This document shows, one piece after another, positions 15,312 through 41,164 of a DNA stretch of 64,000 bases. Numbering within the stretch: position 1 is the first letter of the stretch; every line of letters starts with the position of its first letter. Made by a program: the position numbers and the translations under genes. The notes under the pieces were generated by a model. That model worked only from the letters and a program-made list of their open reading frames with translations. It searched no databases and was not told the origin of the DNA. The stretch is taken from assembly GCA_038896535.1 (NCBI GenBank), contig JAWACY010000002.1, forward strand, positions 91,002 through 155,001, read 5' to 3'. The stretch comes from Candidatus Anstonellales archaeon (lineage in GTDB: Archaea; Micrarchaeota; Micrarchaeia; Anstonellales; J096).

Positions 15312-17498
15312 ATGGTTGAGAAACTGCAAAGCCCTCCTCCAGCATATGAGGAAATAAATAAAAACACGAAGGATGAATCAAGAAAGCTGGCATTGGAAGC
15401 CCTTAACTCCCTCAGAAATAACCCCAAATTCAAACAAGAATGGTTAACAAAAGAATTAGGAGAAAAAATCTCATCAATAACAAAGAAAATAATAGAAAAC
15501 ACATCAGGAGAATCAAGAAAGTGGGCATTCGAAGCTCTTAACAACCTCCTACAAAACCCAAAATTCAACCCAGAATGGCTAAAACCAGAATTAGGAGGCA
15601 ATATATCATCAGTAGTTAATAAGATTATGAGAAACGATTCACTAAGTGAAGAGCAAAAAAGGGCCTCATTAAATAATTTAAATGGACTTCTTCAAAATGC
15701 AGAAAATCCCATACGGATATTGTCAGGACAAGGAGCCACACAACAAACACCAACAGTTAGAGGAGAAGTGGCAAGAAGAGCAAGGAGCCAGATGCAAAGT
15801 GAAAATTATTATAGAGGCATTTCTACTGCTCTGGCTTATTATTTAGTTGGTAAAACTAAATATGAATATTTAATAGCGGAGCAAAGGGATCAACTCCAAA
15901 AATATGGAGTTGATGAAAAAACATTTAATGCTTATATTAAATATTTTAGGGAAAAGGGGGTAAAAAGTAGCATTGTAGATAAAGACGCTTATATTAGGGG
16001 CGTGCCTTTAGAAGAAGCACTTTTTGTAATACTTGTAGTAACAGGGACTGGACCAGTTGGAATGGAGACAATAAGAGAGATAACTAAGAATTACAATGAA
16101 ACAAACAAAATGAAAGATATTAACGATTTATTTGGAGGGTCTTTGGCCCACTTAAGTCAACGAGGTGTAAGGGGAGCAAGTGGCTATAAACAGTATTTTG
16201 GTGGTGTGATTGATTATCTAACATGGGAAAGTCCTCAAACGCAAGCAGGACCTTTAGAAGCAATTGGAGATATATTAAGAATGGCTAATGATAACAGAAA
16301 GAATTGGGGAGAAAAAGCTGTAAAAGAAGCATTGGATAACATTAGGGGGCTACTGGCTCAACCAGCACCACCTAAAGTTGAAGAAGGAAAAGTTCCACCA
16401 GCAACAGAACCTATAATTGGAAGGCCAGGTGCTCCCCCTCATGCTGAACAACAACCTGCGCCTCCTATAGCAACACCAAAGCCCGCTGTCACCGCACAAC
16501 CACCAGAAAAAGTAGAATTATTATCGCAGGGAGATTTGCAGAAAATAGTTGATAAATTAAACCAAAATCAAAATAAACCGCCTTATACTAAGTATGGTGT
16601 AGATGAGAGTGAGAATAAAATTAATGTTGCTTATGAAGTGGTTAAAGTGTTGGGGCTTGGTGAAGGACTCACACAAGACATAGAAGAATCAAGAAGGCAA
16701 AGAGCAGCAGTTGATCATGCATATAAGATTATAACTAATTTATCACCAAATGTTGAGGAAAGGAGGCTTTATTTAAAGAATGTAAACCCAGCAGCATTTG
16801 AGGATTTGAGGAGAATATTAAGTGGAACATATGCTTCTAAACTTTTAGATGACATTATAGGTGATGAAGCTGGTAGAAAATATATAAACTTAAAAAACCT
16901 TGATGCATTATATACAACACTTACTAAAGATGGTAGACATGTGTTGATAAAAAGTTTATTGAACGCTGCTGGCGTTAATGAAAATGATTTCTTAGATTTT
17001 ATTAATTGGGATAAAGATAAAAAGGAAATTAAAAGTCTTAAAGACTTATGGGAAAGGCTTAGCGATGATGAAACAGGAGCAATGCTGGGAACTGCTGTGA
17101 TGTTTATTGCTGGGTATAAGGGTAATTATTTATACACATCTTATCGCAGCAGGGAGGGCGCAAAAACAGAAATAAGTTTTACTACAGAAGATGTTGAAAG
17201 CAAAATAGGCAAAGGTGGGGGAGTTGTATTAAGTATTAGGGCGCGCTATGGAAATGGACCAATAGAAACAATAACAGAAAAAGAAAAAGGAAAGGGGCCA
17301 ATAAGTGAAGAAGATAAGTCAGCACAACCAAGTCTAACGCCTGGCGGTGGAGGGGCTGAGACCCCCCCCACAGCGGAGGGAGGAGGAGAAGGAGAAAAAA
17401 GAGAAGGAACAGAAAGCCAACAACAAGAAAAAAAAGAAGAAAAACAAACAGAAACACCACAAGCACCAGAAGGACCAGGAGGACCAATAACACCATAA
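15312..17498 (+). CDS. hypothetical 728-aa protein with N-terminal 45-aa tandem repeats and Pro/Gly/Glu-rich C-terminus
   Basis: Two 135-bp tandem repeat units encode SRK(L/W)A(L/F)EALN(S/N)L..NPKF..EWL..ELG. A central APPxxP linker and a GGGGAETPPTAEGGGEGE tail follow. No signal peptide. Confidence 0.6.
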   Translation: MVEKLQSPPPAYEEINKNTKDESRKLALEALNSLRNNPKFKQEWLTKELGEKISSITKKIIENTSGESRKWAFEALNNLLQNPKFNPEWLKPELGGNISSVVNKIMRNDSLSEEQKRASLNNLNGLLQNAENPIRILSGQGATQQTPTVRGEVARRARSQMQSENYYRGISTALAYYLVGKTKYEYLIAEQRDQLQKYGVDEKTFNAYIKYFREKGVKSSIVDKDAYIRGVPLEEALFVILVVTGTGPVGMETIREITKNYNETNKMKDINDLFGGSLAHLSQRGVRGASGYKQYFGGVIDYLTWESPQTQAGPLEAIGDILRMANDNRKNWGEKAVKEALDNIRGLLAQPAPPKVEEGKVPPATEPIIGRPGAPPHAEQQPAPPIATPKPAVTAQPPEKVELLSQGDLQKIVDKLNQNQNKPPYTKYGVDESENKINVAYEVVKVLGLGEGLTQDIEESRRQRAAVDHAYKIITNLSPNVEERRLYLKNVNPAAFEDLRRILSGTYASKLLDDIIGDEAGRKYINLKNLDALYTTLTKDGRHVLIKSLLNAAGVNENDFLDFINWDKDKKEIKSLKDLWERLSDDETGAMLGTAVMFIAGYKGNYLYTSYRSREGAKTEISFTTEDVESKIGKGGGVVLSIRARYGNGPIETITEKEKGKGPISEEDKSAQPSLTPGGGGAETPPTAEGGGEGEKREGTESQQQEKKEEKQTETPQAPEGPGGPITP
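15375..15644 (+). repeat. 135-bp in-frame tandem repeat (2 copies) inside the 728-aa gene
   Basis: gaatcaagaaag... recurs at 15375 and 15510, with about 75 percent nucleotide identity by eye across the units. Confidence 0.7.
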
Positions 17499-17615: not shown

Positions 17616-17880
17616 TATGAATACTGATGGAGAGATAGGATAAAAAGAATAAAAAGTTGAGCTTATTATATCACTTATCTTATGATATTATAGAGTAAAT
17701 AGATAAAGACAAATAAAATCAATGAGAGATGAAAAAAACACGATAACAGATTTGGGGAGAAGTGTTAAAAATAAGAGCGTGTGCTTTGTATATGGGCTGT
17801 TTTATCTCAAAAAATATCTCAAAAAAATCAACATGCGGAATTATATAGTATAAAAAGCAATAAAAACCAAATAAAATTCA

Positions 17881-20800
17881 TTATTTCTCTTCTTCAAGTT
17901 TTTTCTCTAATGCTTTCAAATCCTCAATGAGTTTATCAAATGTTTTTTGTTCGGATTGCTCTCGGAAAATACTAGGGGCACTAACCCTCAAAAAATTAAA
18001 GTACTCTTCATACCTGCCGCTGAAATCTCTAAAACACAGACCAGGCATATTATAAAGATCGTTTATATCATCCCTCATTTGGTTTTTGAATTCTTGTGAT
18101 GTTGTTTTTTTAGTGGCCATTTCTTGTGCTGTCTTTAGAAATTGCGCCTCATAACTATCTGGCACTAGTAAAAAATATGATTCAACACCATCTTGACCTA
18201 TTTTTCCTCCTACTGCTTTTATATAACCTAACGGATTATTTACGATAGATGTATAAAGATTTATTACCTTCTTGATTGAACTAAACTCCGTTTGTTCTTT
18301 TTCTGCTTCCTTTTGTTCTTGTGTTGGTTCTAGTTTTTTGTATAAATCGTTAAATAATCTTGTAATTTCCCCTTCGTTGCCAAGCAATTTTTTCAACGCT
18401 TCATATTCACTTTCTCCCAATATCTCTTTAGCGAGTTTTCCGTCTTCTACTTCTAGTAAAGGAGTATAATAATATATAATGGGCTCTAAATTCCTCAAAA
18501 CTGTTAAAACATCTTCAAAATAGCTTAAATAAGCATTTCTTATTTCACTCCTTATTTTAGATATTTCAAGCAACACATGATATTTAGCCCTTTCTGACAA
18601 ATTAAATTTTTTCAGCTTCTCAATTAGTCTTCTCTCTTCTTCCTTTAACTCATTTATTCTGTCTTTGGTTTTTTCCAATGCCTCGTTATTCAATTTTTCT
18701 AATTCATTTATGTAGTTATTTATTGTTCCGCTGTCATATTTTGATAAAAAATCATGTAATGAAACCTGCTCTCCGTTAAAATAAAACCTATAATGAAAAG
18801 GCGTAAATGGTTCTTTAATACCAAGCAAGCTTAAAAAAGGCGACAAAAGTGGCACTCTTGCTTTTTTCTCATCCTCATACTGTTGTTTTACTATTTCTCT
18901 AAATCTATTATCGATCTTACTAATCACATTGTCTTTATCTAAACCAAATTTCGTTGCAAATGACTCCGCAATTCCAGTCTTTATCTCCATAAATGGCGCT
19001 GCACTACCATAATTAACCTTAAAAAACATGAAATCTATTAAAGCTCTATAATCAAGCTTAATATAATCAGCGGCTTCCTCAATAGAAACACCGTATGTTT
19101 TTGCAAGCGCTAAAATCCTTCTTACGGAATAAGAAAGAGCACTTATTACATCCCCTGTATAATTCCATTTCCTTTCATATATAAGAGCCCCTACATCTTT
19201 CTTAAATTTTTCTATGTTGCTTATTCCACTCAATTTTTCTACTGCTTTAACCAATACCTCAACAACATCGCTTTCCTTCATATCGCCAGAAAGATAAAAA
19301 ACAGGTGAGCTGGGGTTTCGAATATCTATTTTTGTACTGAGATATGTTATTATTGCAGCCATTTCTCTTATTTGTTCCGGCTTTAGAGTATTCAGGTTAA
19401 CAAGTTTATTTAATCTTACGTATCTCTCCCTCATTTTTTCTGCTATTTTTTCTCTTAACGTTTTTCTTGCTTCGTCTCCATTATAAAAACTATAACTTAT
19501 CCATTGCTTCTTTTCCTCTTCCAACTCTTTTATCTCTTTTTCTCTTTGCCCCCTTATTATATCCCATGCTTTCTTGAATGCTTCCCCTCCTTGTTCAACA
19601 AGAGTAAATATAAATTTCGGTGGAAAGCCAAAAGTTGATATATCCTCCAATTTCGATATTGATGCAAATTGCAATGTTTCATAAAATGCTTCTAATGATG
19701 CATACACATAACTATTCTTGCCAAGAGGGTTTTTTCCATTTTCCAGTGCTTGCAGGATTCTTTCCATTAAACCCTTTGCTCTTATAATATCACCAAAAAT
19801 AAGAAGTTTATAAACAATTTCCATATGTTTTGACAGATCTTCTGTTTTTTCTATTTTTATCTCAGTCTTCAACAAATTATCTGCCAACACTGCAGTTCTC
19901 TTATAAAAATCAAAAGCCGAACTTAATACGTTCTTAGCTGCTTCCAATGGGGATATGCCAAGTTTTTTTATGTATTCTAATGCTGCTTCACCTGTATAAA
20001 CTATAATCTCTCCTGATTTGCCTGTTTCTACATAAATCATACCTCTTGCCCTTATATCTCTTTGATATTCACCACTAAATGCATTATTTACATACATAGC
20101 CAAAATATAAAATGCTGCCATTTGTGTATTTGTAAAAACAAATTTCCCAGATCTTATATTTAATGCGCCAGCCGGTGTTTCAAGGCTTAATTTACCGCCA
20201 GCCAGCCACCTAAAATCGAGTAAATCCGGGGCTAATGTAATGCCTGCATATGGCCCAAACTTATGAGACACTCCTGCTAAAAATTCTTCAACCTCGGCCT
20301 GAACATAAGGGTTCCATTGTGGCACTTCTGCCCCAATTGCAACGCCAGAACTAGAAGTTGGAACTTGCATTCTTCTGCCTTCAGGATGTGGTATTTCTTG
20401 TATTGTTCTTTCTTCTACCCTAACTCCAAATCCAGCTGTTGGTTGGAGCTTTTCTGTTGGGGTAATTATCACACCGAAACGAGGGCCTGCCTCTAACCTT
20501 TGTTCATAATAATTAGTTATTGCTGTTGTACCTCTGTTTATAAATACTTCCTCTAAAGCGTTTTTAATATCTTCCAAATTCGCATGTCTATTTTTTGAAC
20601 TCTTGTAAAGAGATTCAACTAGGCCCTCTAAATCTCCTTTTGTAAGATAAACAGTACCCCCCAACAGTTCTTTTATCTTCTGTAGTTCTCCTTCTGATAG
20701 TAAAATACCGCCAGACCCAGCCAAAGCTTGTGGGCCAGCTAATAAATCAATAGGTAGAACAAATACTCGACTCTCTTGATCATATATAACTACTTCCTTG

Positions 20801-20985
20801 CCATTATAGGTTATCTTACCATCCCTCCCTATTTTATAACCAGCATTTTTCATCTTATTTAAAAGCCAATCATAAACCTTTCTCCATGGTTCTCTCTTGT
20901 ATTCTTGCTTTTTTCTTTGCTCCTCTGCCTTCTCTGCTGTTTCCCTTGTTCGTTGTTCCAGTTTACTTCCTTTTTCTTGCCCCAA
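17881..20985 (-). CDS. giant hypothetical protein (1034 aa), fourth gene of the giant-protein operon
   Basis: Uninterrupted 3.1-kb ORF. N-terminal third is Gly-rich and beta-like (GPYAGITLAPDLLDFRWLAGGKLSLETPAGALNIRSGKF). The remainder is K/E-rich alpha-helical. No catalytic motif found. Confidence 0.7.
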   Translation of the reverse strand: MGQEKGSKLEQRTRETAEKAEEQRKKQEYKREPWRKVYDWLLNKMKNAGYKIGRDGKITYNGKEVVIYDQESRVFVLPIDLLAGPQALAGSGGILLSEGELQKIKELLGGTVYLTKGDLEGLVESLYKSSKNRHANLEDIKNALEEVFINRGTTAITNYYEQRLEAGPRFGVIITPTEKLQPTAGFGVRVEERTIQEIPHPEGRRMQVPTSSSGVAIGAEVPQWNPYVQAEVEEFLAGVSHKFGPYAGITLAPDLLDFRWLAGGKLSLETPAGALNIRSGKFVFTNTQMAAFYILAMYVNNAFSGEYQRDIRARGMIYVETGKSGEIIVYTGEAALEYIKKLGISPLEAAKNVLSSAFDFYKRTAVLADNLLKTEIKIEKTEDLSKHMEIVYKLLIFGDIIRAKGLMERILQALENGKNPLGKNSYVYASLEAFYETLQFASISKLEDISTFGFPPKFIFTLVEQGGEAFKKAWDIIRGQREKEIKELEEEKKQWISYSFYNGDEARKTLREKIAEKMRERYVRLNKLVNLNTLKPEQIREMAAIITYLSTKIDIRNPSSPVFYLSGDMKESDVVEVLVKAVEKLSGISNIEKFKKDVGALIYERKWNYTGDVISALSYSVRRILALAKTYGVSIEEAADYIKLDYRALIDFMFFKVNYGSAAPFMEIKTGIAESFATKFGLDKDNVISKIDNRFREIVKQQYEDEKKARVPLLSPFLSLLGIKEPFTPFHYRFYFNGEQVSLHDFLSKYDSGTINNYINELEKLNNEALEKTKDRINELKEEERRLIEKLKKFNLSERAKYHVLLEISKIRSEIRNAYLSYFEDVLTVLRNLEPIIYYYTPLLEVEDGKLAKEILGESEYEALKKLLGNEGEITRLFNDLYKKLEPTQEQKEAEKEQTEFSSIKKVINLYTSIVNNPLGYIKAVGGKIGQDGVESYFLLVPDSYEAQFLKTAQEMATKKTTSQEFKNQMRDDINDLYNMPGLCFRDFSGRYEEYFNFLRVSAPSIFREQSEQKTFDKLIEDLKALEKKLEEEK

Positions 20986-21038
20986 TATCCCACCATTTAT
21001 TTATTAAAATATTCATTTCCTCGGCATGTGCACAATCA

Positions 21039-24000
21039 TTACCTAGTAGCCTTCAGTTTTGAGATCCTAAAAATGGCATCAAAATATGCTTTCACTACCT
21101 CTCCTGTTCTTTGAATGTTCAGTGCTATGTCGCCCCCATATTGACTTATTTCTGCGGGCCATGTCTCTGATATTGCCATACTACCATACACAACAATTCC
21201 TTGGAGCAGTTCATTACTTAGATCTTTACCAATAACTGTGGCTCTATACACACCACTACCAAGACGCCATGTCTCATCACTTATATTATTAAAAACAATC
21301 TCACCATTCTTGATGCTATAATTTATCTCTCTTACTTCATTGTTGAAAGTAAAATCCCCCCTTACACCAGTGCCACCTGGAGTCATGCCTGGCCCACCTA
21401 TATCATGAGTATAAACACCAGTTGCAAGCCAACTTTTATATTTACTGATCTGCCCAATAATAATATCTTCCCTTTCTTTATTTTTTATCTTTACTCCCTC
21501 GCTCGTTTTAACTCTCTCGCCAAAAGCAAGTTGAACATTTGTAACTCTTCTAAGACCAGTTAGATATGTGTTAACTAAATTAAATGTGCCTGTCATTCTT
21601 CTGGCTATTAACTCATCTGCCTTTTCTCCTCCTGCTCCTACATATTGTGTCCCCCCTGTTCCGAAAAATAGCCACTTATTATCTTCTCCTGCAAGAAAGC
21701 CAAGCCACCCACTTGTAGCATCTTTTTGCCCCTTAGCTATATCTATATTTGTTCCTATTAATAACTTACCACTAACAAACTTCGCCTCTAATCTCCCCTC
21801 TAATGCTCCGCCTGTTATTGTTATCCTCTCCTTGCCATTAATTGTTTTGCCGTTTAAATTTTTTAAAACCGCTTCTCCTGTCTTTAAAGGCCCTAAATTT
21901 CTTGTCCACCCACCTAAAACAATAAGCCTCCCTTCTTGGTTTGGGGCAAGAGCAACAATTGCTGATATCTTATTCTTATCATCAAATTCAACATGCACAA
22001 AAGCATGCCTAACCTCCAAATCCTCTATTTTCTCTCTTCCAATACCAGCAATAGCATTAATGGTTTCTGTATCTAAACCTGCGTATGAAAGAAATTGCAA
22101 AACAGTCTTAGGATCTCCTTCTTTTTCTCCATTAACTATCAAAAGGTAATCCCTTAAAAAATACGTAAGAGCTGCTTGTAAACGCCTCCTCCCCTCATTA
22201 AAGTTGTTTATAATACCAAATTGAAAATCAGTACCAAAACTTTGAAGAGTTTCTATTTGTTTTTTTAATAGTGGATCACCTAGATCCTCATTTATTGTTC
22301 TCACAGAATACCCTAATGCTGCTAAAGCAATTGGTGCATTCCTGTATGGATTTGTATATTGAAATTGTGCTCCATATTCTAACTGTACTTTTTTAGGTGT
22401 CCAATGCTTAGTGACTTTATCAACAAAACCTTTTGCTTCCCAATTTGTTGTTCCTGGGGGCGCACTTATCCCACTAATATATACGCCCCGTCTTCCCATT
22501 ACGTCATAAATTTTACCTACGAAGATACTATAATTCCTTTGATCAAGATAGGATAAACCACCTAAGCCACCACCACCAATTGGTAAGTTCTGCCCAATTA
22601 AAAAACCGCCCCATTGATTAACCTGAAGTGCTGGGGCTGCTACAAAACCATCAATACTTGGTTTATTATGCAAGGCTATAACAAGACCATCTAGACTAGC
22701 CAGAGTTGTTCCCTTTGTTTCTCTTCCTCCTTGCACACCAGTTTCAATCACCAATCCCTGCGCCTTTGCCAAATTCCCCTCCTTTGCCTTTTCCCTTACC
22801 CCTAAGTTATTAAGATAATTTATATACTCCTTTGCTTGTTCTTGTGGTACATAAAAGTATCCTGCTTCTGCATAAGTTCCATTTGGTTGTCTATAAAAAA
22901 TTCTTGCTTTATACTCTCCTTTCTCTATTTCCCCTCCTTTTGTTTTTTCGAAAACAAGGCCAGTTTCAACACCAGTCGGTAATAATAAATTCAACTTGTC
23001 CAAAGTTGTTAATTCTTTTGGCCCTTTATAAGATGCGTTGGCTTCAACAGTCCACAAAGTATTCCCGTCGTTGAGATTCACTCTTTTAAATCTTCCCTCT
23101 GCTATTGTTACTGCCCCCGAATCACTTGAGCCCCCGCCACCACTCAACTCAGCTTCTGTTCTGGTTATGCCTGGAAAGGCCCGTTGAATGTAGCTAAGTC
23201 TTCCGCTGAAATATCTACTCCATTGTCCCTCGCCATTTCTTTCCGCTCTGTAAGTACCGCCAAACGTTCCTTCAATAACTTTAAATGTCAGAGGTCCTTC
23301 AATTGGCAAATACTTGCTCAATATCTTGTTTAATTTACTATAATCAAATGTAAAATAAGGCAAGATTAATTGCAATGCTGGTGTGGTTAAATTAAATTCC
23401 AACATTTCTCCGTTTTCTATTGTTTTTCTGAGTTCTTCAAATGTTTTTGGTAGTGCAGTTGGTATTTCGCCAGGAAGAAGATAACCATGAAGAGAATTAT
23501 ACACGGTTCTTGGAAGGTTGATATTGATCTTTAAATCTGGTATATTTACAGTAAAACCTTGTTGTTCTGTTTGTGTTATTTTTATTTTAAAAGTTTCTAA
23601 GCCAGTAGTCTGGTCTCTTTCAACTTTAAGATTTTCCATTTTTATATCTTGAATGGTTGGAAATATTTTATTTAATTCAGTTCCGACTTCACGCAGAAAA
23701 TTTATTGCGCCTGCTGTATAATTACTTTCATATAATGCCTGCGCACTACCTAAAATCAAAGACAACCCATGGCTAAGTATCTCAGTGTTGCCTTGTTTGC
23801 TTACAAAGGGCGTTAGATAAACTGCAGCAGCAAAATGCAGCTCAGGGCGTATCATAGAAAGATTCTCAATAAAAATCCTTAATTTTTCTCCTTCTACTGT
23901 CTTAAGAAATTCTCTAATTTTACTCATCGTTATACGTTCAGGGTCTCCGCCAAGCAAGGAAGCGGCATGCTTGGCTATATAAATTTGTGCGTAGTAATTA

Positions 24001-24833
24001 AGTAGCGCGAACTGTTTCTGTGTTGTCGTATTAGATCCTAAGGCCTCAAAGAATTTATTTCTAATTTCTAAATCTTTTGCCAAATTTTCATCACCATAGG
24101 GCAATATGAATTTTCTCAGTTCTGCCATTTGTTTCTCATTTTCAATTTCAATTTTGCCGTCATAATAAGCAAAAATGTCAGCTATAGCAGTTTGTCTTCT
24201 TCCATAAAATGTTGATAGAATTCTATGGAACAGCGTTCTTGTATCAAGATTGAGATTACTCAAAAGATCTTCGAAATCCTTGAGATCTCCATCTTTCCTT
24301 TTAATCTTTTCTTCTAGAACTTTCTCTAATTTTTCTCCTAATAGCCTTTTGTATTTAGTTTCAAGTTTTTTTAGGTTACCCCAAACTTCTTCTAATCTCT
24401 TTATAAAATCATCAATCTTTCCTCTTACAGTTTTTGCGTCTGCATCGGGGGGAATATTTAGAAAACAATCCGCATAAGCATCCTCTATTATTTTAGCCTG
24501 GGAGGTTAATTCATTTAATAATTTCTTATATTCTTGTATGAGCTCCCTTTCCTTCTCTGAAAAAAAGTCTAGATTAAGTTTACTTAAATATTGAACAAAC
24601 TCATTTAATGTTCTGTAGTTCAAGGCGTATTGGGTATATTTAGGCACTTCTTCCTCTATTTTCTGTGGAGCCTTCATATTAAATAGAAGCGTTAAACCCA
24701 TTACTACGCTCTCTCTTTGCTTCTGCGCCTCATTTGCTGTTTCTATTGCTCTTCTTTTTCCTTCTGTTAGTTCTTCTGTTAGTTGTGGTGTTTCTTTTTT
24801 TCCGACCGGACTTTTTTCTTGTGTGGCTGGCAT
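21039..24833 (-). CDS. giant hypothetical protein (1264 aa), third gene of the operon
   Basis: Uninterrupted 3.8-kb ORF. N-terminal 600 aa are helical and K/E-rich, C-terminal 650 aa are Gly-rich (GGGGLGG, GGPGMTPGGTGVRGDF). No Walker motif or protease motif seen. Confidence 0.7.
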   Translation of the reverse strand: MPATQEKSPVGKKETPQLTEELTEGKRRAIETANEAQKQRESVVMGLTLLFNMKAPQKIEEEVPKYTQYALNYRTLNEFVQYLSKLNLDFFSEKERELIQEYKKLLNELTSQAKIIEDAYADCFLNIPPDADAKTVRGKIDDFIKRLEEVWGNLKKLETKYKRLLGEKLEKVLEEKIKRKDGDLKDFEDLLSNLNLDTRTLFHRILSTFYGRRQTAIADIFAYYDGKIEIENEKQMAELRKFILPYGDENLAKDLEIRNKFFEALGSNTTTQKQFALLNYYAQIYIAKHAASLLGGDPERITMSKIREFLKTVEGEKLRIFIENLSMIRPELHFAAAVYLTPFVSKQGNTEILSHGLSLILGSAQALYESNYTAGAINFLREVGTELNKIFPTIQDIKMENLKVERDQTTGLETFKIKITQTEQQGFTVNIPDLKININLPRTVYNSLHGYLLPGEIPTALPKTFEELRKTIENGEMLEFNLTTPALQLILPYFTFDYSKLNKILSKYLPIEGPLTFKVIEGTFGGTYRAERNGEGQWSRYFSGRLSYIQRAFPGITRTEAELSGGGGSSDSGAVTIAEGRFKRVNLNDGNTLWTVEANASYKGPKELTTLDKLNLLLPTGVETGLVFEKTKGGEIEKGEYKARIFYRQPNGTYAEAGYFYVPQEQAKEYINYLNNLGVREKAKEGNLAKAQGLVIETGVQGGRETKGTTLASLDGLVIALHNKPSIDGFVAAPALQVNQWGGFLIGQNLPIGGGGLGGLSYLDQRNYSIFVGKIYDVMGRRGVYISGISAPPGTTNWEAKGFVDKVTKHWTPKKVQLEYGAQFQYTNPYRNAPIALAALGYSVRTINEDLGDPLLKKQIETLQSFGTDFQFGIINNFNEGRRRLQAALTYFLRDYLLIVNGEKEGDPKTVLQFLSYAGLDTETINAIAGIGREKIEDLEVRHAFVHVEFDDKNKISAIVALAPNQEGRLIVLGGWTRNLGPLKTGEAVLKNLNGKTINGKERITITGGALEGRLEAKFVSGKLLIGTNIDIAKGQKDATSGWLGFLAGEDNKWLFFGTGGTQYVGAGGEKADELIARRMTGTFNLVNTYLTGLRRVTNVQLAFGERVKTSEGVKIKNKEREDIIIGQISKYKSWLATGVYTHDIGGPGMTPGGTGVRGDFTFNNEVREINYSIKNGEIVFNNISDETWRLGSGVYRATVIGKDLSNELLQGIVVYGSMAISETWPAEISQYGGDIALNIQRTGEVVKAYFDAIFRISKLKATR

Positions 24834-24863
24834 AGAAAAATTTGAATAAATGAGTTTAAAAAT

Positions 24864-26711
24864 CTATATGAAATACTTGCAAGGAGAATTTAAAAGCGTT
24901 AGATTAATATCGCACTTATAGTCTAATTCTTTCGTTGCTCCGCCTATATTTCTTTGCACATTTTCTATTGTTAAATTAATTGTATAACTCTTTTTTTCGT
25001 CTTCACGCATATTATTAAAACCGTCCCTTGATGCTGTGGCATTAAATAGCATATAAGCTTGTTTTGGTTGAGATGTAGTCGTGTCGTTAACAATACTTAT
25101 TAATGCTGATAATTCAGCCAATAAATCACTGCCATCTTTAACCCCATACTTAGGAGCATTATCACAGCTCAAATATCTGTTTTGAGATATGTCAAAACCG
25201 CAAAATATATAACTGTATTTAAGAGTGCCGGGCAGCAATATAACTTTAACCGGCTGAGGAGAGCAAGCCAAAGATCCCATGCAATAAAACACCCTACTCT
25301 TATTGTTATCATCCTCATTGCTTTCAGCTATACTATTTTCAGGATCAGCACTCGTATTTACCTCTATTATTTTAAATTCATCTTCGCATATTAAATTGAA
25401 TTTTACTATATTATTATCTGGTGATAGCTCATATTTATCCTCTATTATTGTGCTTTGTGTTTGTGTTGTTTCTTTAATTTTCAATGATAAATTTGCTTTT
25501 CCTTGTGGCGGGAAATTTTCAAAAATAATCGATGCATTACACTCATAACTTCTGCCTTGGCCTATTTCATTGCCATTAAATGGGCATGATATGTCTGATT
25601 TTAAGTTTGGTGTCAATATATTTACTGTTATTTGTGTAGTTATTGTATAACCACTACACCCAGATTCTAATGATTGAATTGTAACATTAAATGTCAGGCT
25701 TGCTGGCATTGGTTGATTGCCATTATAATTTAAATCCCCTGTTACATCAGCACTACTGCCACTAGCTATTTCCACCTGATTATCAAGAGAAAAAGCGAAA
25801 TTATTATCATTAGGCACTACAGATATAACTTTTATCTTCTCTTCTCCATTATTTGTGACTTTTATTGTAACTTTTGTAGGGTTTCCAGTATATACAATTC
25901 CATTACTTGATAACTGAACATTTATTAATTTACAATATGGCACATTAACCGGCAAGCTTATTGAGTAAGCATCTGTAGGTTGCCTGAAATATCTTATTCC
26001 TTCCCTAAAAGAAAAATAAGTATCATTCATATCAACAAGTAAGACACAAAAATAATTGGCATTTGCATTTATTGAATTTGGATTATTACTTATTGTGAAA
26101 GTTTTGGCAAAACTATTGCCTGATTCGCCACTTATAGATTGATAATAATTGTTAACAGATATATCCCCATGACAATACATTACTGCTGAACCATTTGAGA
26201 CTTTCCAGTTATTATCATTATTATAATATTTAACATTTACTTGCCTCCCGTTTGAAATTGAGAAAGCACATGAACCAGTTTTATTAAAATAATAATAACC
26301 AACGCCATTACCAAAATCTGTTTTACAATTGTTTGATGCGTCGAATGGAAGCGAGCCTTGTTGGATAAAATTTACTGTTAAATTTTGCAATCCGGGCCCA
26401 GTTCCGCCAGTCGAGCCAAATGAAGAGCTTGTTGATGATATTACATCACCAGTAGGCCAAAACTTTAAAGTTAGGTTTGCTAAAACGTTAAATGGTTTAT
26501 TTGGTATTACTTTTTGAACTCTTACACCATTTTGATAAAAATCAACTGAAAAGTTAAATAACCATGAAATTGGAGCAATTAAATCAAAATTAGTTTGTTG
26601 CCCTGAACGAGGAGCATTTCCTGCCTTATATAAGTCACTTCCAGATTGTGATGTTTGTGCACTAAAAACAATTGTTAAAATTAAAAATAAAAAAAATATT
26701 TTTTTTATCAT
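24864..26711 (-). CDS. secreted Cys-rich, N-glycosylation-sequon-rich protein (615 aa) with signal peptide, second gene of the operon
   Basis: MIKKIFFLFLILTIVFSAQTSQ is a typical signal peptide. More than 25 N-x-S/T sequons and about 20 Cys. KVTIKVTNNGEEKIKVISVVPNDNNFAFSL resembles CARDB-like beta-sandwich adhesion domains. Confidence 0.7.
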   Translation of the reverse strand: MIKKIFFLFLILTIVFSAQTSQSGSDLYKAGNAPRSGQQTNFDLIAPISWLFNFSVDFYQNGVRVQKVIPNKPFNVLANLTLKFWPTGDVISSTSSSFGSTGGTGPGLQNLTVNFIQQGSLPFDASNNCKTDFGNGVGYYYFNKTGSCAFSISNGRQVNVKYYNNDNNWKVSNGSAVMYCHGDISVNNYYQSISGESGNSFAKTFTISNNPNSINANANYFCVLLVDMNDTYFSFREGIRYFRQPTDAYSISLPVNVPYCKLINVQLSSNGIVYTGNPTKVTIKVTNNGEEKIKVISVVPNDNNFAFSLDNQVEIASGSSADVTGDLNYNGNQPMPASLTFNVTIQSLESGCSGYTITTQITVNILTPNLKSDISCPFNGNEIGQGRSYECNASIIFENFPPQGKANLSLKIKETTQTQSTIIEDKYELSPDNNIVKFNLICEDEFKIIEVNTSADPENSIAESNEDDNNKSRVFYCMGSLACSPQPVKVILLPGTLKYSYIFCGFDISQNRYLSCDNAPKYGVKDGSDLLAELSALISIVNDTTTSQPKQAYMLFNATASRDGFNNMREDEKKSYTINLTIENVQRNIGGATKELDYKCDINLTLLNSPCKYFI

Positions 26712-26723
26712 TTTTTCACTTTA

Positions 26724-29700
26724 TTATGTAGATTCAGCATTCTTAAATAATTCTTCTGCCATTTCTTCTGGATCTCTTGTTATTGTTCTCCCCCATGCAT
26801 CTACATCTTCTGTTCTTAAACCTATCTGTTCTAAAAGCCAATTAACTGCCCTCTCTGCTCCAGACACAATAACTGTAAGTATTGGGACAAAGTAAGGGCC
26901 TACTTGAATAACAGAAATGCTAGGGTTAACAGACCAGTTCTCTCGCTCATAACTAACTGTATAAGTATTTATTAATCCCACTGATGGAATTGGGCTCCTT
27001 GCCCAAGATAAACCAAATTTTCCACCGCCAATTGCATAACTAGCTCCTGCTCCCCACATTAAACCGGCGCTGCTAAAACCAACAAATGGAGAAACAGTTA
27101 AATCTCCTAATCTAACATATGGGGACAGAGCAGCCATTCCATAAATAGCGAGGGCATTAGTTGCACTAGCACTAAGAAGCCAGGCAAGTCCAACATTCTC
27201 ATTCCCAAATATTGGGAATGCAGTACTTATTCCAACTCCGGGATTTACAAATTTTCCATTAACAAACATAATTTGTGGCTGAATAGTAAATGGCCCCTCA
27301 CGAAACTCTAAGCCAACAATTGCTGTCCTTCTCAATCTATCAGCAAATAATTTTTGCTTTTCTTTTAATGTTAATTCTCTTGGCCTCTGCTCTCTTACCT
27401 CTTTTATTATTGGTTTAATCTTCTCTTGGTCTTTTTTATCAAATTCAAGCCCGCCTAATTTCTGGCCATTACTGTCTTTTACTTCAATAAATATTTTATC
27501 ATTTGTTTCTGTTACTGTATAATTATAATTCCTAAGATTGTGAGCCACATTTTTAAGTCCTTCTTTTGTATTTTCTCCTATATTAGGTATCTGATCGATC
27601 TGATCATCGGTTGGCACATTAACGACCCAATTACCATTTTGCTTCGTGAGAGTTAAATTTTGCTGTAATTTCTTTATTGCTTCTTCAGCAAGGTTGCCGC
27701 CTACATCAGAAGGTAATATTGAACGAAATTCCGTCAAAGATATTTCATAACCAACAACTTCTGTTCTTATTATTGATTCCGTTGCTGTTGTTGGTAGGCT
27801 AACTACTGGCACAACTGGAAGGAGTGTTAAGTCTGGCTTTCTTGGCTGAATAAAAATTGGTGTTCCTACATTATCTATCATACCATAAAATTCTACTTTT
27901 GGCAGTTGCGGAGCTCTACTAACACTTTCTGAAGGAACAGGCATAGTTATAGAAAATTCTCCTCCCCACCTTGAAACGCTGCCATAACCAAGCTCAACAT
28001 CGCCATTCAATACAAAATAGTTGCGCCATATAAGTGCATCTTTTTTGTTATCCTCTTCTTTTTCATTCTTTTGTGATAGCATTAAAATTGCCATACTGGC
28101 ACTTGATGCCATTATTATATTTTCTCTATCATTTTCTGGTGTCAGGACAAGCCTATCATTTTTCGTTACTAATATATCATCTTTTGCGGCTGCGTTAACT
28201 GTTACATTCCCTCTATTATCAACATTAACTCTATAAACTGTTATTCTTTCACCATTTGGCTTTAAGATATCTATGTTATAAGTTCCGGGCTTTAAATTTT
28301 TTGCTTTAATTGTCTCTTGAATATTTTCAATCTTTTGTTGACTGCCAAACACATTTCTGTTTATATTGATGCCTTCTGTTGCTTTTTGCCATCCAGCTAT
28401 CCAATTTTGAGCATTAAATGCATTTCCAACCAGATCTTCAAATGGATATTCAACTGCCTGTATTGCAAACAAAACTGCTGCAGCATCTTCAACCGATATT
28501 TTATTACTAAGGCCAAGTTCTTGTATCAATTTTCTTGCACTATCTCTTAAGTTATTCTTTTCTGTATCAGACATGGAATCAAAAATCCTTTGTGTATTAT
28601 TCAGAAAGTAATCAAAAACCGCGTTATATCTCCTCCTATATACTTCATTAGCTTCTTCGCTTACATAACCAAAATACCTTCTTATAACAAATTCTTTTAG
28701 GCCATTCAAATCATTTACTCTGCTGCCTTTAGCATATTTAACAATCCAAGCAACAGATGGATAATAGCCAAGAAATTCTTGGCTGTATTCATAACTTGCT
28801 GTTATACTATAACCTTTACCTTTCTTCTTTTCTCCTGCTGGTTTATAATATACTCTTGTCTCTGTTGCCCCTTGTGGTGGTTGTGGCTGCAGTGGTGATT
28901 CAGGTGGTTTTTGTTCAACTTCAACATACTTAACCGGTAGCTTTGGTTGTATGCTTTCTACAAGTTTTAGAATACGCAAACCCTGCTTTTGCTCTTCTGA
29001 TCCTTTAGCAAAATATTCGTTTTTATTAAGCTCTTCATTAAAAGCAGAAATCTCATTATCGGTTTTTAAATGCTCCTTTATAATATTAAGCACATCGACC
29101 TTTTCATTATCAGGCAACTGCTTATTCATAATTTGTATTAATGCTATTCTCCTGATTAAAGGCTCTAAAAACAAGGGCATAAAATCTTCTTCTATCCCTA
29201 CTCTTTTTGCCAGTGAAACAAGCTCACTCCTTATATCATTATCCTCTTTCTTTAACTGTTCTATCTGTGCAATAACATCTTTTAGATTAACATTATTCTT
29301 CAACATAAATACAACATCATTTATATCATAACCATAATCCCATAATAAACTTTTTACATCTTCCTCATTATTTTCATTGATAGTAATATTTTTTTGTTTT
29401 AATTTTTCTTTTATTTGCTGCCACACAACATCTGACCATTTTTCTTTTATTTTGTCTTCCAGATATTCGTTAAAATCTCTATACTTCATGCTTCTTAAGT
29501 TAATACTTTTTTCATACCAGTCTTCATCCAAAAGTTCAGCAACAAATGATAAATATTCATCCGCTGTCATTGAATTCATTATTTGAGTCAAAAAATTTTG
29601 CCTTCTCATAGAAACAATTGAAAATGCTTCTCTATCCCCTGCACTTCTATATGATAATCTTTCTTGAATAAGAATTAAAGCAAATTGGTTTGCAACTGTC

Positions 29701-30680
29701 ATTGTAGAAGCTTTTGCATTCATATCAGCAAATGTTTTTGCCAGCTTTCTGTATTGCTTTTCAAACTCTTCTTTTTCTTGATCTCCTGAATTTTTACTTA
29801 TACTGTCTTTATAGAATTTTTGTAGTTTATCATAAAATTCTGAGACAATAAGATAAATAGATGCCAGCTTTCCTGCTTCTGCATCAAAAAGATGAAGATA
29901 CTTACTTGGCAATTTTCCTCCTTCTACCAATCTTTCTACTACTCCCCTTAAGTCATTCATGCCTTTACTCAACTCATCGTAAAAATCATTCATCGATTTT
30001 GTTAGGTCTACTTTTTGTTCTCTTTCTCCTATTTGTTCATTAGAAATTAAAATGGAATAACCCTTAGCTAGAGTCAAATTCAAATATGCAACAGAATCAT
30101 AAAGCTCTTTGCCGGTTTTGAGCTTTTTTTCATCAAATAATGCTTTCATAATAAGTCCTATTGTTGCTTCCATATATACATTTTTTTCTTTTGCTGGCAA
30201 TTCTAAACTTTGGCCAATTGAATCAAAACCATCATAAGCAATGCCAATAACTTGCAATAGACTAAGCCTTATTCTTCCAGCTTCTGTTCCAACATCTTTT
30301 AACTCTGCAAGAGATTTTATCACATCTGCAATCTCTTCATCCCCTAATCCTTTCCTTTTTGCAGCTAATTCAACAAGCATTGCTGCTTCTATTGTTGACG
30401 CATATCTTGCCTTTTCTTTAGGGTCTTTTTCATTCAATATACTCTCTATAAGTCCCCTATCAGTCCTTACAAGATAGGCAATTCTACCAAAAAAAGTTCT
30501 AGGCCATATTTTTGCATAACCTTGCTTTACTAATCTATCTATTAACTCACCTTCATTTTTTATTTGAAATTTGTTTACATATGCACTTAATACTTCTTCG
30601 CTTACCCCATATTTTTGTGCTAATTGCTTAACATCAATTTGTTTTTCAGTTGCTGTTTGATCAGGCATTTTTACACCCAT
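26724..30680 (-). CDS. giant hypothetical protein (1318 aa) with C-terminal Gly-zipper-like hydrophobic membrane region, first gene of the operon
   Basis: Uninterrupted 3.96-kb ORF. First 900 aa are K/E-rich and helical. Last 200 aa contain hydrophobic Gly/Ala/Ser-rich stretches (VGLAWLLSASATNALAIYGMAALSPYV, VSPFVGFSSAGLMWGAGASYAIGGG, VGPYFVPILTVIVSGA). Confidence 0.7.
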   Translation of the reverse strand: MGVKMPDQTATEKQIDVKQLAQKYGVSEEVLSAYVNKFQIKNEGELIDRLVKQGYAKIWPRTFFGRIAYLVRTDRGLIESILNEKDPKEKARYASTIEAAMLVELAAKRKGLGDEEIADVIKSLAELKDVGTEAGRIRLSLLQVIGIAYDGFDSIGQSLELPAKEKNVYMEATIGLIMKALFDEKKLKTGKELYDSVAYLNLTLAKGYSILISNEQIGEREQKVDLTKSMNDFYDELSKGMNDLRGVVERLVEGGKLPSKYLHLFDAEAGKLASIYLIVSEFYDKLQKFYKDSISKNSGDQEKEEFEKQYRKLAKTFADMNAKASTMTVANQFALILIQERLSYRSAGDREAFSIVSMRRQNFLTQIMNSMTADEYLSFVAELLDEDWYEKSINLRSMKYRDFNEYLEDKIKEKWSDVVWQQIKEKLKQKNITINENNEEDVKSLLWDYGYDINDVVFMLKNNVNLKDVIAQIEQLKKEDNDIRSELVSLAKRVGIEEDFMPLFLEPLIRRIALIQIMNKQLPDNEKVDVLNIIKEHLKTDNEISAFNEELNKNEYFAKGSEEQKQGLRILKLVESIQPKLPVKYVEVEQKPPESPLQPQPPQGATETRVYYKPAGEKKKGKGYSITASYEYSQEFLGYYPSVAWIVKYAKGSRVNDLNGLKEFVIRRYFGYVSEEANEVYRRRYNAVFDYFLNNTQRIFDSMSDTEKNNLRDSARKLIQELGLSNKISVEDAAAVLFAIQAVEYPFEDLVGNAFNAQNWIAGWQKATEGININRNVFGSQQKIENIQETIKAKNLKPGTYNIDILKPNGERITVYRVNVDNRGNVTVNAAAKDDILVTKNDRLVLTPENDRENIIMASSASMAILMLSQKNEKEEDNKKDALIWRNYFVLNGDVELGYGSVSRWGGEFSITMPVPSESVSRAPQLPKVEFYGMIDNVGTPIFIQPRKPDLTLLPVVPVVSLPTTATESIIRTEVVGYEISLTEFRSILPSDVGGNLAEEAIKKLQQNLTLTKQNGNWVVNVPTDDQIDQIPNIGENTKEGLKNVAHNLRNYNYTVTETNDKIFIEVKDSNGQKLGGLEFDKKDQEKIKPIIKEVREQRPRELTLKEKQKLFADRLRRTAIVGLEFREGPFTIQPQIMFVNGKFVNPGVGISTAFPIFGNENVGLAWLLSASATNALAIYGMAALSPYVRLGDLTVSPFVGFSSAGLMWGAGASYAIGGGKFGLSWARSPIPSVGLINTYTVSYERENWSVNPSISVIQVGPYFVPILTVIVSGAERAVNWLLEQIGLRTEDVDAWGRTITRDPEEMAEELFKNAEST

Positions 30681-30730
30681 TAAATTTTTATTTAGTTATA
30701 TTTAAAAATGTTGCTAAAATAAAAAAAGGT

Positions 30731-41118: not shown

Positions 41119-41164
41119 ATACAATTAGCTTATAGCACTAGTAGAGTTAAGTTTAAAAAACAAA

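Follow-up and report, generated by a model that had tools for sequence, protein, structure and literature searches.

The window analysed here, 64,000 nt from a Candidatus Anstonellales archaeon, contains a stretch of 12.8 kb that this tiny-genome archaeon devotes to four adjacent genes with essentially no known relatives. The gene cluster is real and orphan. As a tentative reading of the whole, we propose that the cluster is lineage specific and natively encoded in Anstonellales (Micrarchaeota, DPANN) and that it may specify an envelope-spanning complex composed of cytoplasmic giant proteins (P1, P3 and P4), a membrane module within P1 and an extracellular protein, P2.

A compact block of native genes

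All four open reading frames are co-directional on the minus strand. P1 (26724-30680; 1318 aa), P2 (24864-26711; 615 aa) and P3 (21039-24833; 1264 aa) have ATG start codons, and P4 (17881-20985; 1034 aa) has a TTG start preceded, 5 nt upstream, by a GGTGG Shine-Dalgarno-like element. The P1-P2, P2-P3 and P3-P4 gaps are 12, 30 and 53 nt, and the proteins sum to 4231 aa over 12,800 nt, or 20.0% of the window. These lengths, strands and spacings, as well as the window share of about 20%, match an initial annotation of this DNA, and the motifs quoted there were located at P3 residue 753 (GGGGLGG), P1 residue 1210 (GAGASYAIGGGKFG) and P4 residue 262 (AGGKLSLETPAGALN).

From the spacing alone, we infer that P1 to P4 form an operon. 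A TATA-like box read from the sequence (TTTTTAAATATA; 30697..30708, minus strand), centred ~23 nt upstream of the P1 ATG, is a candidate archaeal promoter for the block, and at that distance archaeal promoter geometry would imply a leaderless or near-leaderless transcript. Directly past the P4 stop codon, oligo-T tracts (TTTT, TTTTT and TTTTT; 17851..17880, minus strand) are a candidate archaeal terminator. TATA-like AT-rich boxes are also present within the P2-P3 and P3-P4 gaps. A ferric-reductase-like gene begins on the opposite strand, divergent from P1, and the flanking genes are housekeeping genes (ArgRS, Hjc, HSP20, eIF2-beta and RIO).

The block genes show the GC1>GC2>GC3 coding pattern and native codon usage, with GC3 values (0.21 to 0.26) equal to those of the adjacent housekeeping genes and to the genomic norm. 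A Logan assembly contains a contig that matches 18,288 nt of this DNA at 100% identity, and NCBI metagenome-assembled genome (MAG) contigs hold the four genes intact, one of them differing by a single P4 amino acid (1033/1034 identical). An assembly artefact is thereby ruled out. That the open reading frames might be non-functional, as a chimera or as decaying genes, is a reading to which the lack of homologues lends something, but it is effectively refuted, and we regard it as extremely improbable: frames of 615 to 1318 codons at 31% GC cannot be chance, the coding pattern and independent assemblies speak against it, and remote P3 homologues are conserved. NCBI names the MAGs that carry the genes Candidatus Anstonellales archaeon; the host is a reduced-genome DPANN archaeon (Micrarchaeota, Anstonellales), in agreement with the reduced-genome setting considered in the initial annotation.

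The block proteins are orphans

No significant match in Pfam, NCBIfam, PHROGs, PADLOC or PDB sequences was found for any of P1 to P4, and a scan for Walker A, HExxH, GxSxG or similar motifs was empty, so the earlier descriptions of proteins with no recognisable domains and no Walker- or protease-type motifs were both borne out. Nor did the giants give a significant adhesin, Ig, laminin-G, protease or toxin domain (Pfam and NCBIfam) or confident homology to ordinary cytoplasmic families (Pfam, NCBIfam and PDB sequences). When P1 and P3 were searched against sets of 5.8 and 1.84 billion proteins, just the genes themselves and two distant, truncated P3 homologues came back. The sole protein-database match for P1 was its own record, MEM4296529.1, and P2 is a singleton cluster in a 15-billion-protein collection.

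The synteny search proposed in the initial annotation yielded no second instance of the four-gene block; the genes ahead of the two P3 homologues are unrelated (PEP synthase/MscS and an HtpX-like gene) and are not P1-P2. The architecture said to be common to the three giants holds as a loose compositional likeness, but paralogy is not detectable among P1, P3 and P4.

P1 contains a charge-poor beta-rich module

P1 (149 kDa, pI 5.4) has no Cys and no signal peptide. K/E-rich helices make up its N-terminal half, residues 600-1100 mix alpha and beta structure, and near the C terminus lies a hydrophobic beta module (residues 1120-1273; 26862..27323, minus strand). This module is amphipathic and rich in Gly, Ala and Ser, and K/R/D/E make up 7% of it over 150 aa, the lowest value among the proteins examined, with only secreted P2 comparable. 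It is predicted to be a meander of 9 to 11 long beta strands in antiparallel order, connected by tight two-residue G/N/P turns, with F/I/V/L/W/Y on one face of the strands and G/S/T/N/Q/A on the other. The only strongly hydrophobic 19-mer of P1 spans residues 1254-1272 (Kyte-Doolittle 1.84), and the "Gly-zipper" GLMWGAGASYAIGGG lies inside the module. The segment of this kind with which P1 had been said to end is thus present, charge poor and Gly rich, but it does not form the extreme C terminus, since a 45-residue charged helical tail comes after the module.

These properties suggest that the module could be membrane embedded. An AlphaFold model made from single-sequence input is of low confidence (mean pLDDT 52; barrel 33 to 61) and depicts the ~150-aa module as a beta-meander that may resemble transmembrane beta-barrels. 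To our knowledge, membrane beta-barrels are unknown in archaea.

P2 is a predicted exported protein

Among the four proteins, P2 alone carries a Sec-type signal (MIKKIFFLFLILTIVFSAQTSQS; residues 1-23; 26643..26711, minus strand; Kyte-Doolittle 19-mer mean, 1.88). The protein (68 kDa, pI 5.1) is low in charge, beta rich and N/S/T rich and has no C-terminal anchor. It contains 15 Cys and 15 N-X-S/T sequons, the latter a modest excess over the 11.4 expected from composition; a hydrophobic N-terminal signal, cysteines and sequons are all present, as first described. Sub-threshold matches to CARDB (E = 0.0017; residues 405-472) and Ig_VWA7 (E = 0.037; residues 265-351) complete the picture of a predicted exported extracellular protein that is Cys rich and weakly CARDB/Ig-like. 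The 12-nt gap between P1 and an exported P2 suggests co-translation and co-function.

P3 has two remote homologues, and P4 is sequon depleted

P3 (141 kDa, pI 8.4, 10% Gly) has no signal peptide and no transmembrane segment; residues 17-395 are predicted to be helical and the remainder beta rich and Gly rich. In a HMMER search of 1.84 billion representatives, it matched only itself, P0003 (34% identity) and P0004 (27% identity). Invariant columns of the three-sequence alignment are most densely packed in the most conserved core of the family (FTVNIPDLKININLPRTVY ... LPKTFEEL; residues 426-475; 23409..23558, minus strand), which served as the pattern for collection scans. P0004 begins with a signal-anchor-like segment, which implies that the P3 family can be membrane associated.

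An AlphaFold2 model of P3 from the three-sequence alignment had a mean pLDDT of 42, with N-terminal helical hairpins (H93-125 and H133-179) at 65 to 85. The Foldseek matches to it included ClyA at noise level (probability ≤0.07, E > 1), and an NCBIfam match to the alpha-xenorhabdolysin A subunit was weak (E = 0.0036; 16.6 bits, where the cutoff is 125). AlphaFold and Foldseek yielded no fold-level identification.

P4 (119 kDa, pI 6.3) likewise has neither a signal peptide nor a transmembrane segment. Its beta-like region lies at about residues 120-330, the rest being helical and K/E rich, and it is depleted of sequons (2 observed versus 4.7 expected).

Helix-turn-helix-like motifs link P1, P4 and a convergent neighbour

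The pattern phi-A-x-x-Y-G-V-S...Y-V is typical of helix-turn-helix (HTH) units. An HTH-like motif near the N terminus of P1 (VKQLAQKYGVSEEVLSAYVNKF; residues 11-46; 30543..30650, minus strand) gave sub-threshold matches to ~12 HTH Pfam families, led by HTH_Tnp_1 (E = 0.0014), and a second one in P4 (RRILALAKTYGVSIEEAADYIKL; residues ~621-650; 19036..19125, minus strand) matched Sigma70_r4_2 at a sub-threshold E of 0.09; every HTH match falls below the Pfam gathering threshold. The convergent neighbour of the block, N728 (15312..17498, plus strand), encodes an orphan protein of 728 aa without a signal peptide, found in the same Anstonellales population only; it carries the YGV(D) HTH-like motif twice (at residues 197 and 427) and has linkers rich in Pro and a C terminus rich in Gly. 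Across the six-frame window, YGV[SD] occurs four times, confined to P1, P4 and N728, whereas shuffles gave a mean of 0.058 and 0/5000 of them reached four, for a motif defined post hoc. A functional connection between N728 and the block is probable, and the common motif points to a cytoplasmic location for the bulk of these proteins.

A proposed envelope-spanning complex and its alternatives

In the arrangement that we tentatively favour, P1 would be synthesised in the cytoplasm, and its C-terminal beta-rich module, a predicted beta-meander or barrel that might form a channel upon oligomerisation, would hold it at, or insert it into, the cytoplasmic membrane, while ~1100 residues, including the N-terminal HTH-like unit, would remain cytoplasmic. 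P2, exported and glycosylated, would supply an Ig/CARDB-like extracellular part, and P3, P4 and probably N728 would be cytoplasmic or peripheral partners docking on P1. The helical K/E-rich regions may be scaffolds and the HTH-like units nucleic-acid-binding or protein-docking modules. Candidate roles are to organise the cell envelope or to act as a conduit where the cell touches a partner cell. The tight gaps, the upstream TATA-like box and the downstream oligo-T run count for such a complex, as do the native GC3, the export features of P2, the charge-poor P1 module and the missing signal peptides and sequon enrichment of the giants. Counting against it are the internal TATA-like boxes, the lack of conservation of the block beside the remote P3 homologues, the low confidence of the barrel-like model, the lack of known membrane beta-barrels in archaea and the sub-threshold HTH matches to a post hoc motif. 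The membrane or cell-surface assembly first envisaged is retained for P2, which is predicted to be exported, and for the possibly membrane-embedded P1 module, but not for P1, P3 and P4 as surface proteins.

A somewhat doubtful alternative is that P1, P3, P4 and N728 are purely cytoplasmic scaffold or nucleoid-associated proteins whose HTH-like units bind DNA or RNA, the P1 module being a soluble barrel or oligomerisation core and P2 an unrelated secreted protein that is only co-transcribed with them. The giants do lack signal peptides and alpha-helical transmembrane segments, they are K/E rich with pI values of 5.4 (P1), 8.4 (P3) and 6.3 (P4), sequons are depleted in P4, the HTH-like motifs recur in P1, P4 and N728, and P3 homologues exist without P1 or P2. 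Yet a 150-residue stretch with 7% charge and a G/S/T/N/Q/A polar face would be an atypical soluble domain in a K/E-rich proteome, P1 lies 12 nt from an exported protein, P0004 has its signal-anchor-like N terminus, and the HTH matches are all sub-threshold. We consider it unlikely that the giants are instead surface or secreted host-interaction proteins (adhesins or partner-membrane pore-formers) exported by a non-classical route, with P2 as co-receptor. Giant envelope proteins such as SPEARE have been implicated in host contact in DPANN (PMC6642349), the amphipathic beta-hairpin module of P1 is similar to those parts of beta-barrel proteins that insert into membranes, the P3 hairpins are compatible with alpha-pore-former-like bundles, albeit with the noise-level ClyA match, the P0004 anchor would place the bulk of that protein outside, and the giants' genes adjoin exported P2. 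However, a signal peptide, a Tat motif and an N-terminal anchor are all lacking in P1, P3 and P4, no upstream extension of their frames is possible, and sequons are not enriched (0.82x, 1.14x and 0.43x of expectation in P1, P3 and P4), N-glycosylation being typical of Micrarchaeota surface proteins (bioRxiv 10.1101/2021.04.28.441871). Together with the K/E-rich composition, the HTH-like motifs suggestive of the cytoplasm and the absence of adhesin, Ig, laminin-G, protease and toxin domains and of the domains that define SPEARE, this makes the giants unlike surface proteins.

Structural and transfer genes of mobile elements are typically orphan and fast evolving and encode very large helical/beta proteins with HTH-like units. 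The block proteins fit that pattern, their phyletic distribution is extremely patchy, and the bulk GC of the block is slightly above that of its flanks. These features speak for a degenerate module of a virus, plasmid or other mobile element, for example one of ejection, tape-measure-like or transfer proteins, that the chromosome has since domesticated. We nevertheless consider this origin very unlikely: the higher GC is explained by amino acid composition, GC3 and codon pattern are those of host genes, housekeeping genes flank the block, the annotated part of the window contains no integrase, capsid, terminase, portal or ATPase, and IMG/VR scans, phage and plasmid tblastn and PHROGs gave zero matches.

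Comparison with known systems

The closest fold resemblance of the P1 module, in a low-confidence model, is to transmembrane beta-barrels (KdgM/NanC porins, OmpT, OpcA, autotransporter beta-domains and Tom40/VDAC). Unlike outer-membrane barrels, P1 has no sequence-family match and no signal peptide, and its module is followed by the 45-residue helical tail rather than closing with an aromatic residue. Those barrels are bacterial or organellar, whereas the host of P1 is an archaeon, and a cultivated Micrarchaeon has a single membrane and an S-layer (bioRxiv 10.1101/2021.04.28.441871). With an N-terminal phi-A-x-x-Y-G-V-S...Y-V pattern and a hydrophobic module at the far end, P1 also recalls ToxR/CadC-like regulators and the HTH of IS3-type transposases, but it is 5 to 10 times larger than ToxR/CadC-like one-component regulators, its HTH matches are sub-threshold, and the HTH-like motif is also internal to P4 and N728, both without a membrane segment. 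The predicted long helical hairpins at the P3 N terminus are like those of alpha-helical pore-forming toxins (ClyA and XaxA/YaxA), although P3 lacks a beta-tongue, a hydrophobic head motif and an export signal, and the scores are at noise.

An N-terminal signal, a pI of 5.1, a beta-rich and N/S/T-rich composition, numerous sequons and weak similarity to CARDB/Ig are what P2 has in common with secreted archaeal surface glycoproteins of the CARDB/Ig-like type and with S-layer proteins (such as SLP_Mh of Ca. Micrarchaeum harzensis). S-layer proteins are nearly without sulfur-containing residues (bioRxiv 10.1101/2021.04.28.441871), whereas P2 contains 15 Cys; neither an S-layer domain nor a homologue was found for it, and its CARDB/Ig matches lie below gathering thresholds. 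The SPEARE proteins of Nanohaloarchaeota are single polypeptides of 3,000 to 8,500 aa, mostly extracytoplasmic, with serine-protease, laminin-G/adhesion and type III restriction-enzyme domains (PMC6642349). The block proteins differ in having none of these domains and a bulk that looks cytoplasmic; like SPEARE, they are very large, restricted to a DPANN lineage and a measurable share of a tiny genome, with a hydrophobic segment towards the C terminus and a proposed role at a cell-cell interface.

Results

Gene block layout and integrity

P1 (26724-30680, 1318 aa), P2 (24864-26711, 615 aa), P3 (21039-24833, 1264 aa), and P4 (17881-20985, 1034 aa, with a TTG start) lie head to tail on the minus strand, separated by 12, 30, and 53 nt, and these ORFs agree exactly with the coordinates claimed in the initial annotation. 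The three Gly-rich strings quoted there were also found, at P3 residue 753, P1 residue 1210, and P4 residue 262. The block spans 12,800 nt, or 20.0% of the window, and encodes 4231 residues (~480 kDa). Genomes of the Anstonellales, an order of Micrarchaeota (DPANN), range from 0.49 to 1.2 Mb (PMC12892359), so that the block represents ~1 to 2.6% of the genome.

The P4 TTG start codon is preceded, 5 nt upstream, by a Shine-Dalgarno-like element (GGTGG), and its frame is closed just upstream. The P1 ATG has a TTTTTAAATATA box ~23 nt ahead of it, and the P4 stop codon is followed by oligo-T runs, signals that fit a single archaeal transcription unit. Because AT-rich TATA-like strings are also present in the P2-P3 and P3-P4 gaps, we regard the operon as putative.

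The ORFs had been flagged for a check against assembly chimeras and internal stops, and we found the genes to be intact in Logan and MAG assemblies. A Logan contig (SRR27730028) showed 100% identity over 18,288 nt, including the entire block, and the same intact genes were present in MAG contigs that NCBI lists as Candidatus Anstonellales archaeon, one of which carried a single P4 substitution. A third MAG contig was 99.83% identical, a similarity that made a dN/dS estimate impossible.

Codon positions in the block followed the order GC1 > GC2 > GC3, with GC3 values of 0.21 to 0.26, equal to those of the adjoining housekeeping genes. The locally raised GC content is therefore a consequence of amino acid composition rather than foreign origin, and recent horizontal transfer of the block was rejected on GC3. 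The flanks consist of archaeal housekeeping genes, encoding Hjc resolvase, YjbQ, a cupredoxin, a ferric-reductase-like membrane protein, ArgRS, HSP20, eIF2-beta, RIO kinase, UbiA prenyltransferase, GGGP synthase (PcrB), and GlmS, and the vicinity of the block contained no gene for an integrase, a capsid protein, a terminase, or an ATPase of secretion or pili. Between the Hjc and ArgRS genes lies a K/E-rich 431-aa orphan (32585-33880, minus strand) with no family match, recorded solely in the same Anstonellales population.

Families and database distribution

Nothing significant was returned by Pfam (at E<=10, with the entire proteins and with nine sub-segments), by NCBIfam, PHROGs, or PADLOC (whole proteins), or by PDB sequences, including searches with the P3-family profile and the P1 C-terminal module (phmmer for P1). 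The statement that Walker, protease, and nuclease motifs are missing held up, as a scan for Walker A, HExxH, GxSxG, and related motifs came back empty. Among the three giants (P1, P3, and P4), all-against-all BLASTP and hhalign (P3-family profile versus P1 and P4) detected no paralogy, and self-BLAST detected no internal repeats.

When 5.8 billion proteins were searched by word index, P3, P1, and the P3-family alignment retrieved nothing beyond the protein cluster to which the query itself belongs, and exact look-up placed P2 and P4 in this Anstonellales population only. Filter-only HMMER with P3 residues 65-1264 against 1.84 billion cluster representatives found just two other proteins, both truncated: P0003 (472 aa, 34% identical to P3, on a 1.9-kb ENA contig) and P0004 (RME79856.1; 934 aa, 27% identical to P3, on an 8.3-kb contig of a MAG labelled Methanobacteriota archaeon J096). 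A GTDB genome scan recovered one of these two homologues again, and scanning the JGI metagenomes, once with the P3 alignment and once with P4, yielded nothing. The helical N-terminal region and a core, FT(I/V)NIPxLxI...P(K/R)(T/S)VY ... P(K/P)TFxEL, are common to P3, P0003, and P0004. Taken together, these results show that the cluster is real, intact, native, and almost wholly orphan.

The synteny search for the block covers the upstream side of the P3 homologues, the downstream side being cut by contig ends. One homologue is preceded by genes for PEP synthase and MscS, and the other by the end of a gene for an HtpX-like peptidase and then ~215 nt of noncoding DNA. The P1-P2-P3 arrangement is absent from both upstream regions and, since the genes there are unrelated, its order is not conserved.

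The N terminus of P0004 (~5546-5750 of L002, the locus that carries it) contains a 40-residue insertion that is not in P3 or P0003 and that includes KAFRRKPMLER and then AMSLALSTALVANPIFI (KD ~1.8), which is signal-anchor-like. As this insertion occurs in P0004 alone, members of the P3 family may differ in membrane attachment. A second stretch of P0004, GGKVALETPA (L002 7484-7513), resembles GGKLSLETPA at P4 residues 263-272. Tblastn gave E=0.86, and in hhalign the P3 profile matched P4 with a probability of <1%, which leaves this GGK(L/V)xLETPA likeness unsubstantiated; it is either chance or a tiny common motif.

Location of the four products

P2 is the sole product of the four with an export signal (MIKKIFFLFLILTIVFSA, residues 1-23, KD 1.88, followed by QTSQ), which it combines with an extracellular-type composition: it is beta-like and N/S/T-rich, has a pI of 5.1, and is 5 to 15% charged along most of the chain, with 15 Cys (2.4%), 15 sequons versus 11.4 expected, and no C-terminal anchor. 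Its matches to Pfam CARDB (19.0 bits, cutoff 22.7, E=0.0017) and Ig_VWA7 (14.7 bits, cutoff 27) fall below the cutoffs. The criteria for S-layer proteins include an almost complete lack of sulfur-containing residues (bioRxiv 10.1101/2021.04.28.441871). No S-layer Pfam domain was found in P2, and on this absence and its Cys content, which argues against an S-layer protein, we rejected an S-layer role.

P1, P3, and P4 have charged, K/E-rich starts, cannot be extended upstream, and carry no signal peptide. P1 begins with MGVKMPDQTATEKQ... and has no hydrophobic segment before residue 1120. Observed-to-expected sequon ratios were 0.82 for P1, 1.14 for P3, and 0.43 for P4, versus 2.4 for the membrane-anchored protein encoded at 45773-46741. 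Residues 17-395 of P3 are predicted to be helical and the remainder mixed and beta-rich; a model of residues 1-800 (3-sequence MSA) had a mean pLDDT of 42, with values of <45 in the beta regions, and its Foldseek matches were noise. The initial annotation had proposed a membrane or cell-surface assembly, a proposal that survives in part: P2 is the extracellular member and P1 probably makes contact with the membrane, but the giants, with neither signal peptides nor sequon enrichment, are not surface-like.

The 45773-46741 protein (plus strand, 322 aa, pI 5.2, no Pfam match) has a membrane anchor or signal at its N terminus and carries 14 N-X-S/T sequons versus 5.9 expected; it is a far better candidate for a glycoprotein or surface protein than the giants are. 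At 42881-43306 (plus strand), a 141-aa protein with 4 sequons versus 1.3 expected starts with MKKHRAQVSFELLAIIFFIF, resembling the class III (type IV pilin-like) signals of archaea; small ORFs with a hydrophobic N terminus adjoin it at 40330-41758, and together they may make up a small cluster of pilin-like genes. At 48948-50330 (minus strand), ankyrin repeats account for nearly the whole of a 460-aa protein (Pfam Ank_2, E=4e-80). Eukaryote-like repeat proteins of this kind are typical of symbiont effector repertoires, and the protein is a candidate for partner interaction in this DPANN archaeon. Elsewhere in the window, a 282-aa protein with an adenylate/guanylate cyclase catalytic domain (60244-61092, minus strand; Pfam Guanylate_cyc, E=2e-8) is encoded next to a ribosomal-protein cluster, and an Rfam tRNA match (63171-63322, minus strand; 61.9 bits) with no ARAGORN call covers 152 nt, a span that implies a long intron.

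The charge-poor C-terminal module of P1

In residues 1120-1273 of P1, only 7% of positions over 150 aa are charged; every other protein examined had a higher value, and only secreted P2 came close. One 19-mer (1254-1272, KD 1.84) lies above the usual threshold for an alpha-helical transmembrane segment, and two others are marginal. AlphaFold2 run on the single sequence of residues 1040-1318 gave a model with a mean pLDDT of 52, in which a small alpha/beta domain (pLDDT 70-85) is followed by two helices, a set of strands, and C-terminal amphipathic helices. The 9-11 predicted strands are antiparallel, 9-15 residues each, joined by two-residue G/N/P turns (pLDDT 33-61), and have a face of F/I/V/L/W/Y residues alternating with one of G/S/T/N/Q/A residues. 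Foldseek matched the model to proteins of the same class (PapC, Tom40, VDAC, and porins) at E>=5e-3. The barrel-like model, being of low confidence and matched by shape rather than by family, is a lead and not a result. Searches of the barrel families (Pfam Autotransporter, OMP_b-brl, and porins) with whole P1 and with residues 1110-1318 at E<=10 found none, and the N-terminal Sec signal expected of an autotransporter or outer-membrane barrel is absent from P1.

A motif shared with a neighboring orphan

The six-frame translation of the whole 64-kb window contains four copies of the motif YGV[S/D]: at P1 residue 24, at P4 residue 631, and at residues 198 and 428 of N728, a 728-aa orphan convergent with P4 (15312-17498, plus strand). 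All copies lie in a phi-A-x-x-Y-G-V-S/D ... A/D-Y-I/V context. Shuffles of P1, P4, and N728 contained a mean of 0.058 occurrences and none of 5000 reached four, for a motif that was defined post hoc. The P1 copy aligned to ~12 helix-turn-helix (HTH) Pfam families, all below cutoff (best HTH_Tnp_1, 19.2 bits versus 24.1, E=0.0014), and weak, sub-threshold alignments were seen between P4 621-650 and Sigma70_r4_2 (E=0.09) and between N728 and HTH_29 (E=0.056). The HTH-like sequences favor a cytoplasmic location for the regions of P1, P4, and N728 that carry them. N728 had no family match in Pfam, NCBIfam, PHROG, or PADLOC; its features include an N-terminal tandem repeat of ~45 aa (ESRKLALEALNSL.../ESRKWAFEALNNL...), linkers rich in Pro, and a C terminus rich in Gly. 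The nonrandom recurrence of the motif links N728 to the block, and N728 is probably part of the same system.

Discussion

The reading that we place first, and hold tentatively, is an envelope-spanning complex in which P3, P4, and N728 would be cytoplasmic elements, P1 would be anchored through its C-terminal beta module, and P2 would be the exported element; such a complex might serve envelope organization or act as a contact-site conduit. Only a little less likely is that the proteins are wholly cytoplasmic, as a scaffold or a nucleic-acid-associated set to which P2 would be incidental; the K/E-rich composition of the giants and the HTH-like units would suit this reading, and the charge-poor stretch of P1 would not. 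True export of the giants by a nonclassical route, as adhesins or pore-formers, is unlikely, as they have neither signal peptides nor sequon enrichment.

A domesticated mobile-element module is very improbable. IMG/VR scans and tblastn against phages (INPHARED genomes) and plasmids found nothing significant, and a viral, plasmid, or defence-system origin was rejected on the lack of PHROGs, IMG/VR, INPHARED, plasmid, or PADLOC matches. An artefact is scarcely credible for genes found intact in separate assemblies.

A bolder form of the envelope-spanning reading makes the P1 module a true membrane-inserted beta-barrel (autotransporter- or porin-like, or an oligomeric beta-pore), with P2 outside and P3, P4, and N728 inside, forming a novel type of conduit that would let the DPANN cell exchange material with a partner cell, possibly nucleic acid in view of the HTH-like units. 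This version is improbable. We know of no archaeal transmembrane beta-barrel, and P1 would be the first. Published accounts differ: ARMAN cells, as read from earlier cryo-ET, have two membranes (PMC4243693), and the cultivated Ca. Micrarchaeum harzensis has one membrane and an S-layer (bioRxiv 10.1101/2021.04.28.441871). The single membrane of the cultivated organism and the missing signal peptide of P1 both make an outer-membrane-type barrel less likely.

A streamlined organism would probably not retain genes for ~480 kDa of protein of unassigned family if they were unimportant. Should the envelope-spanning reading prove correct, the block is a concrete and testable candidate for part of the cell-envelope or cell-contact apparatus of Micrarchaeota, about which, to our knowledge, almost nothing molecular is known. 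If the P1 module is truly membrane embedded, it would challenge the supposed restriction of transmembrane beta-barrels to bacterial and organellar outer membranes. If the proteins form an ordinary cytoplasmic scaffold, the block is one more case of DPANN "dark matter," orphan giant genes being common in DPANN genomes. The worth of the cluster lies in the possible archaeal membrane beta-barrel and in the size of the investment.

The block matches no known family or system, a novelty that is provisional because there is no fold-level identification. The likeness to alpha-pore-forming toxins (XaxA/YaxA and ClyA) is at noise level, and we rejected it: NCBIfam alph_xenorhab_A scored 16.6 bits versus a cutoff of 125, and Foldseek gave ClyA at E>1 and a probability of <=0.07 on a P3 model of pLDDT 42. 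The amphipathic beta sheets had prompted a comparison with bridge-like lipid-transfer proteins (AsmA/TamB/VPS13 repeating beta-groove), which found no support at the profile level, Pfam returning no AsmA, TamB, or Chorein match. SPEARE proteins are defined as single giant polypeptides that combine domains of three kinds, serine protease, laminin-G/adhesion, and type III restriction endonuclease (PMC6642349), and Pfam and NCBIfam detected none of these domains in P1-P4; the SPEARE giants of Nanohaloarchaeota (PMC6642349) share with the block size, lineage restriction, and a hydrophobic segment toward the C terminus, and nothing else. Bacterial autotransporters and porins resemble the P1 module in predicted shape only, and the archaeal CARDB/Ig surface glycoproteins offer an analogy for P2 alone.
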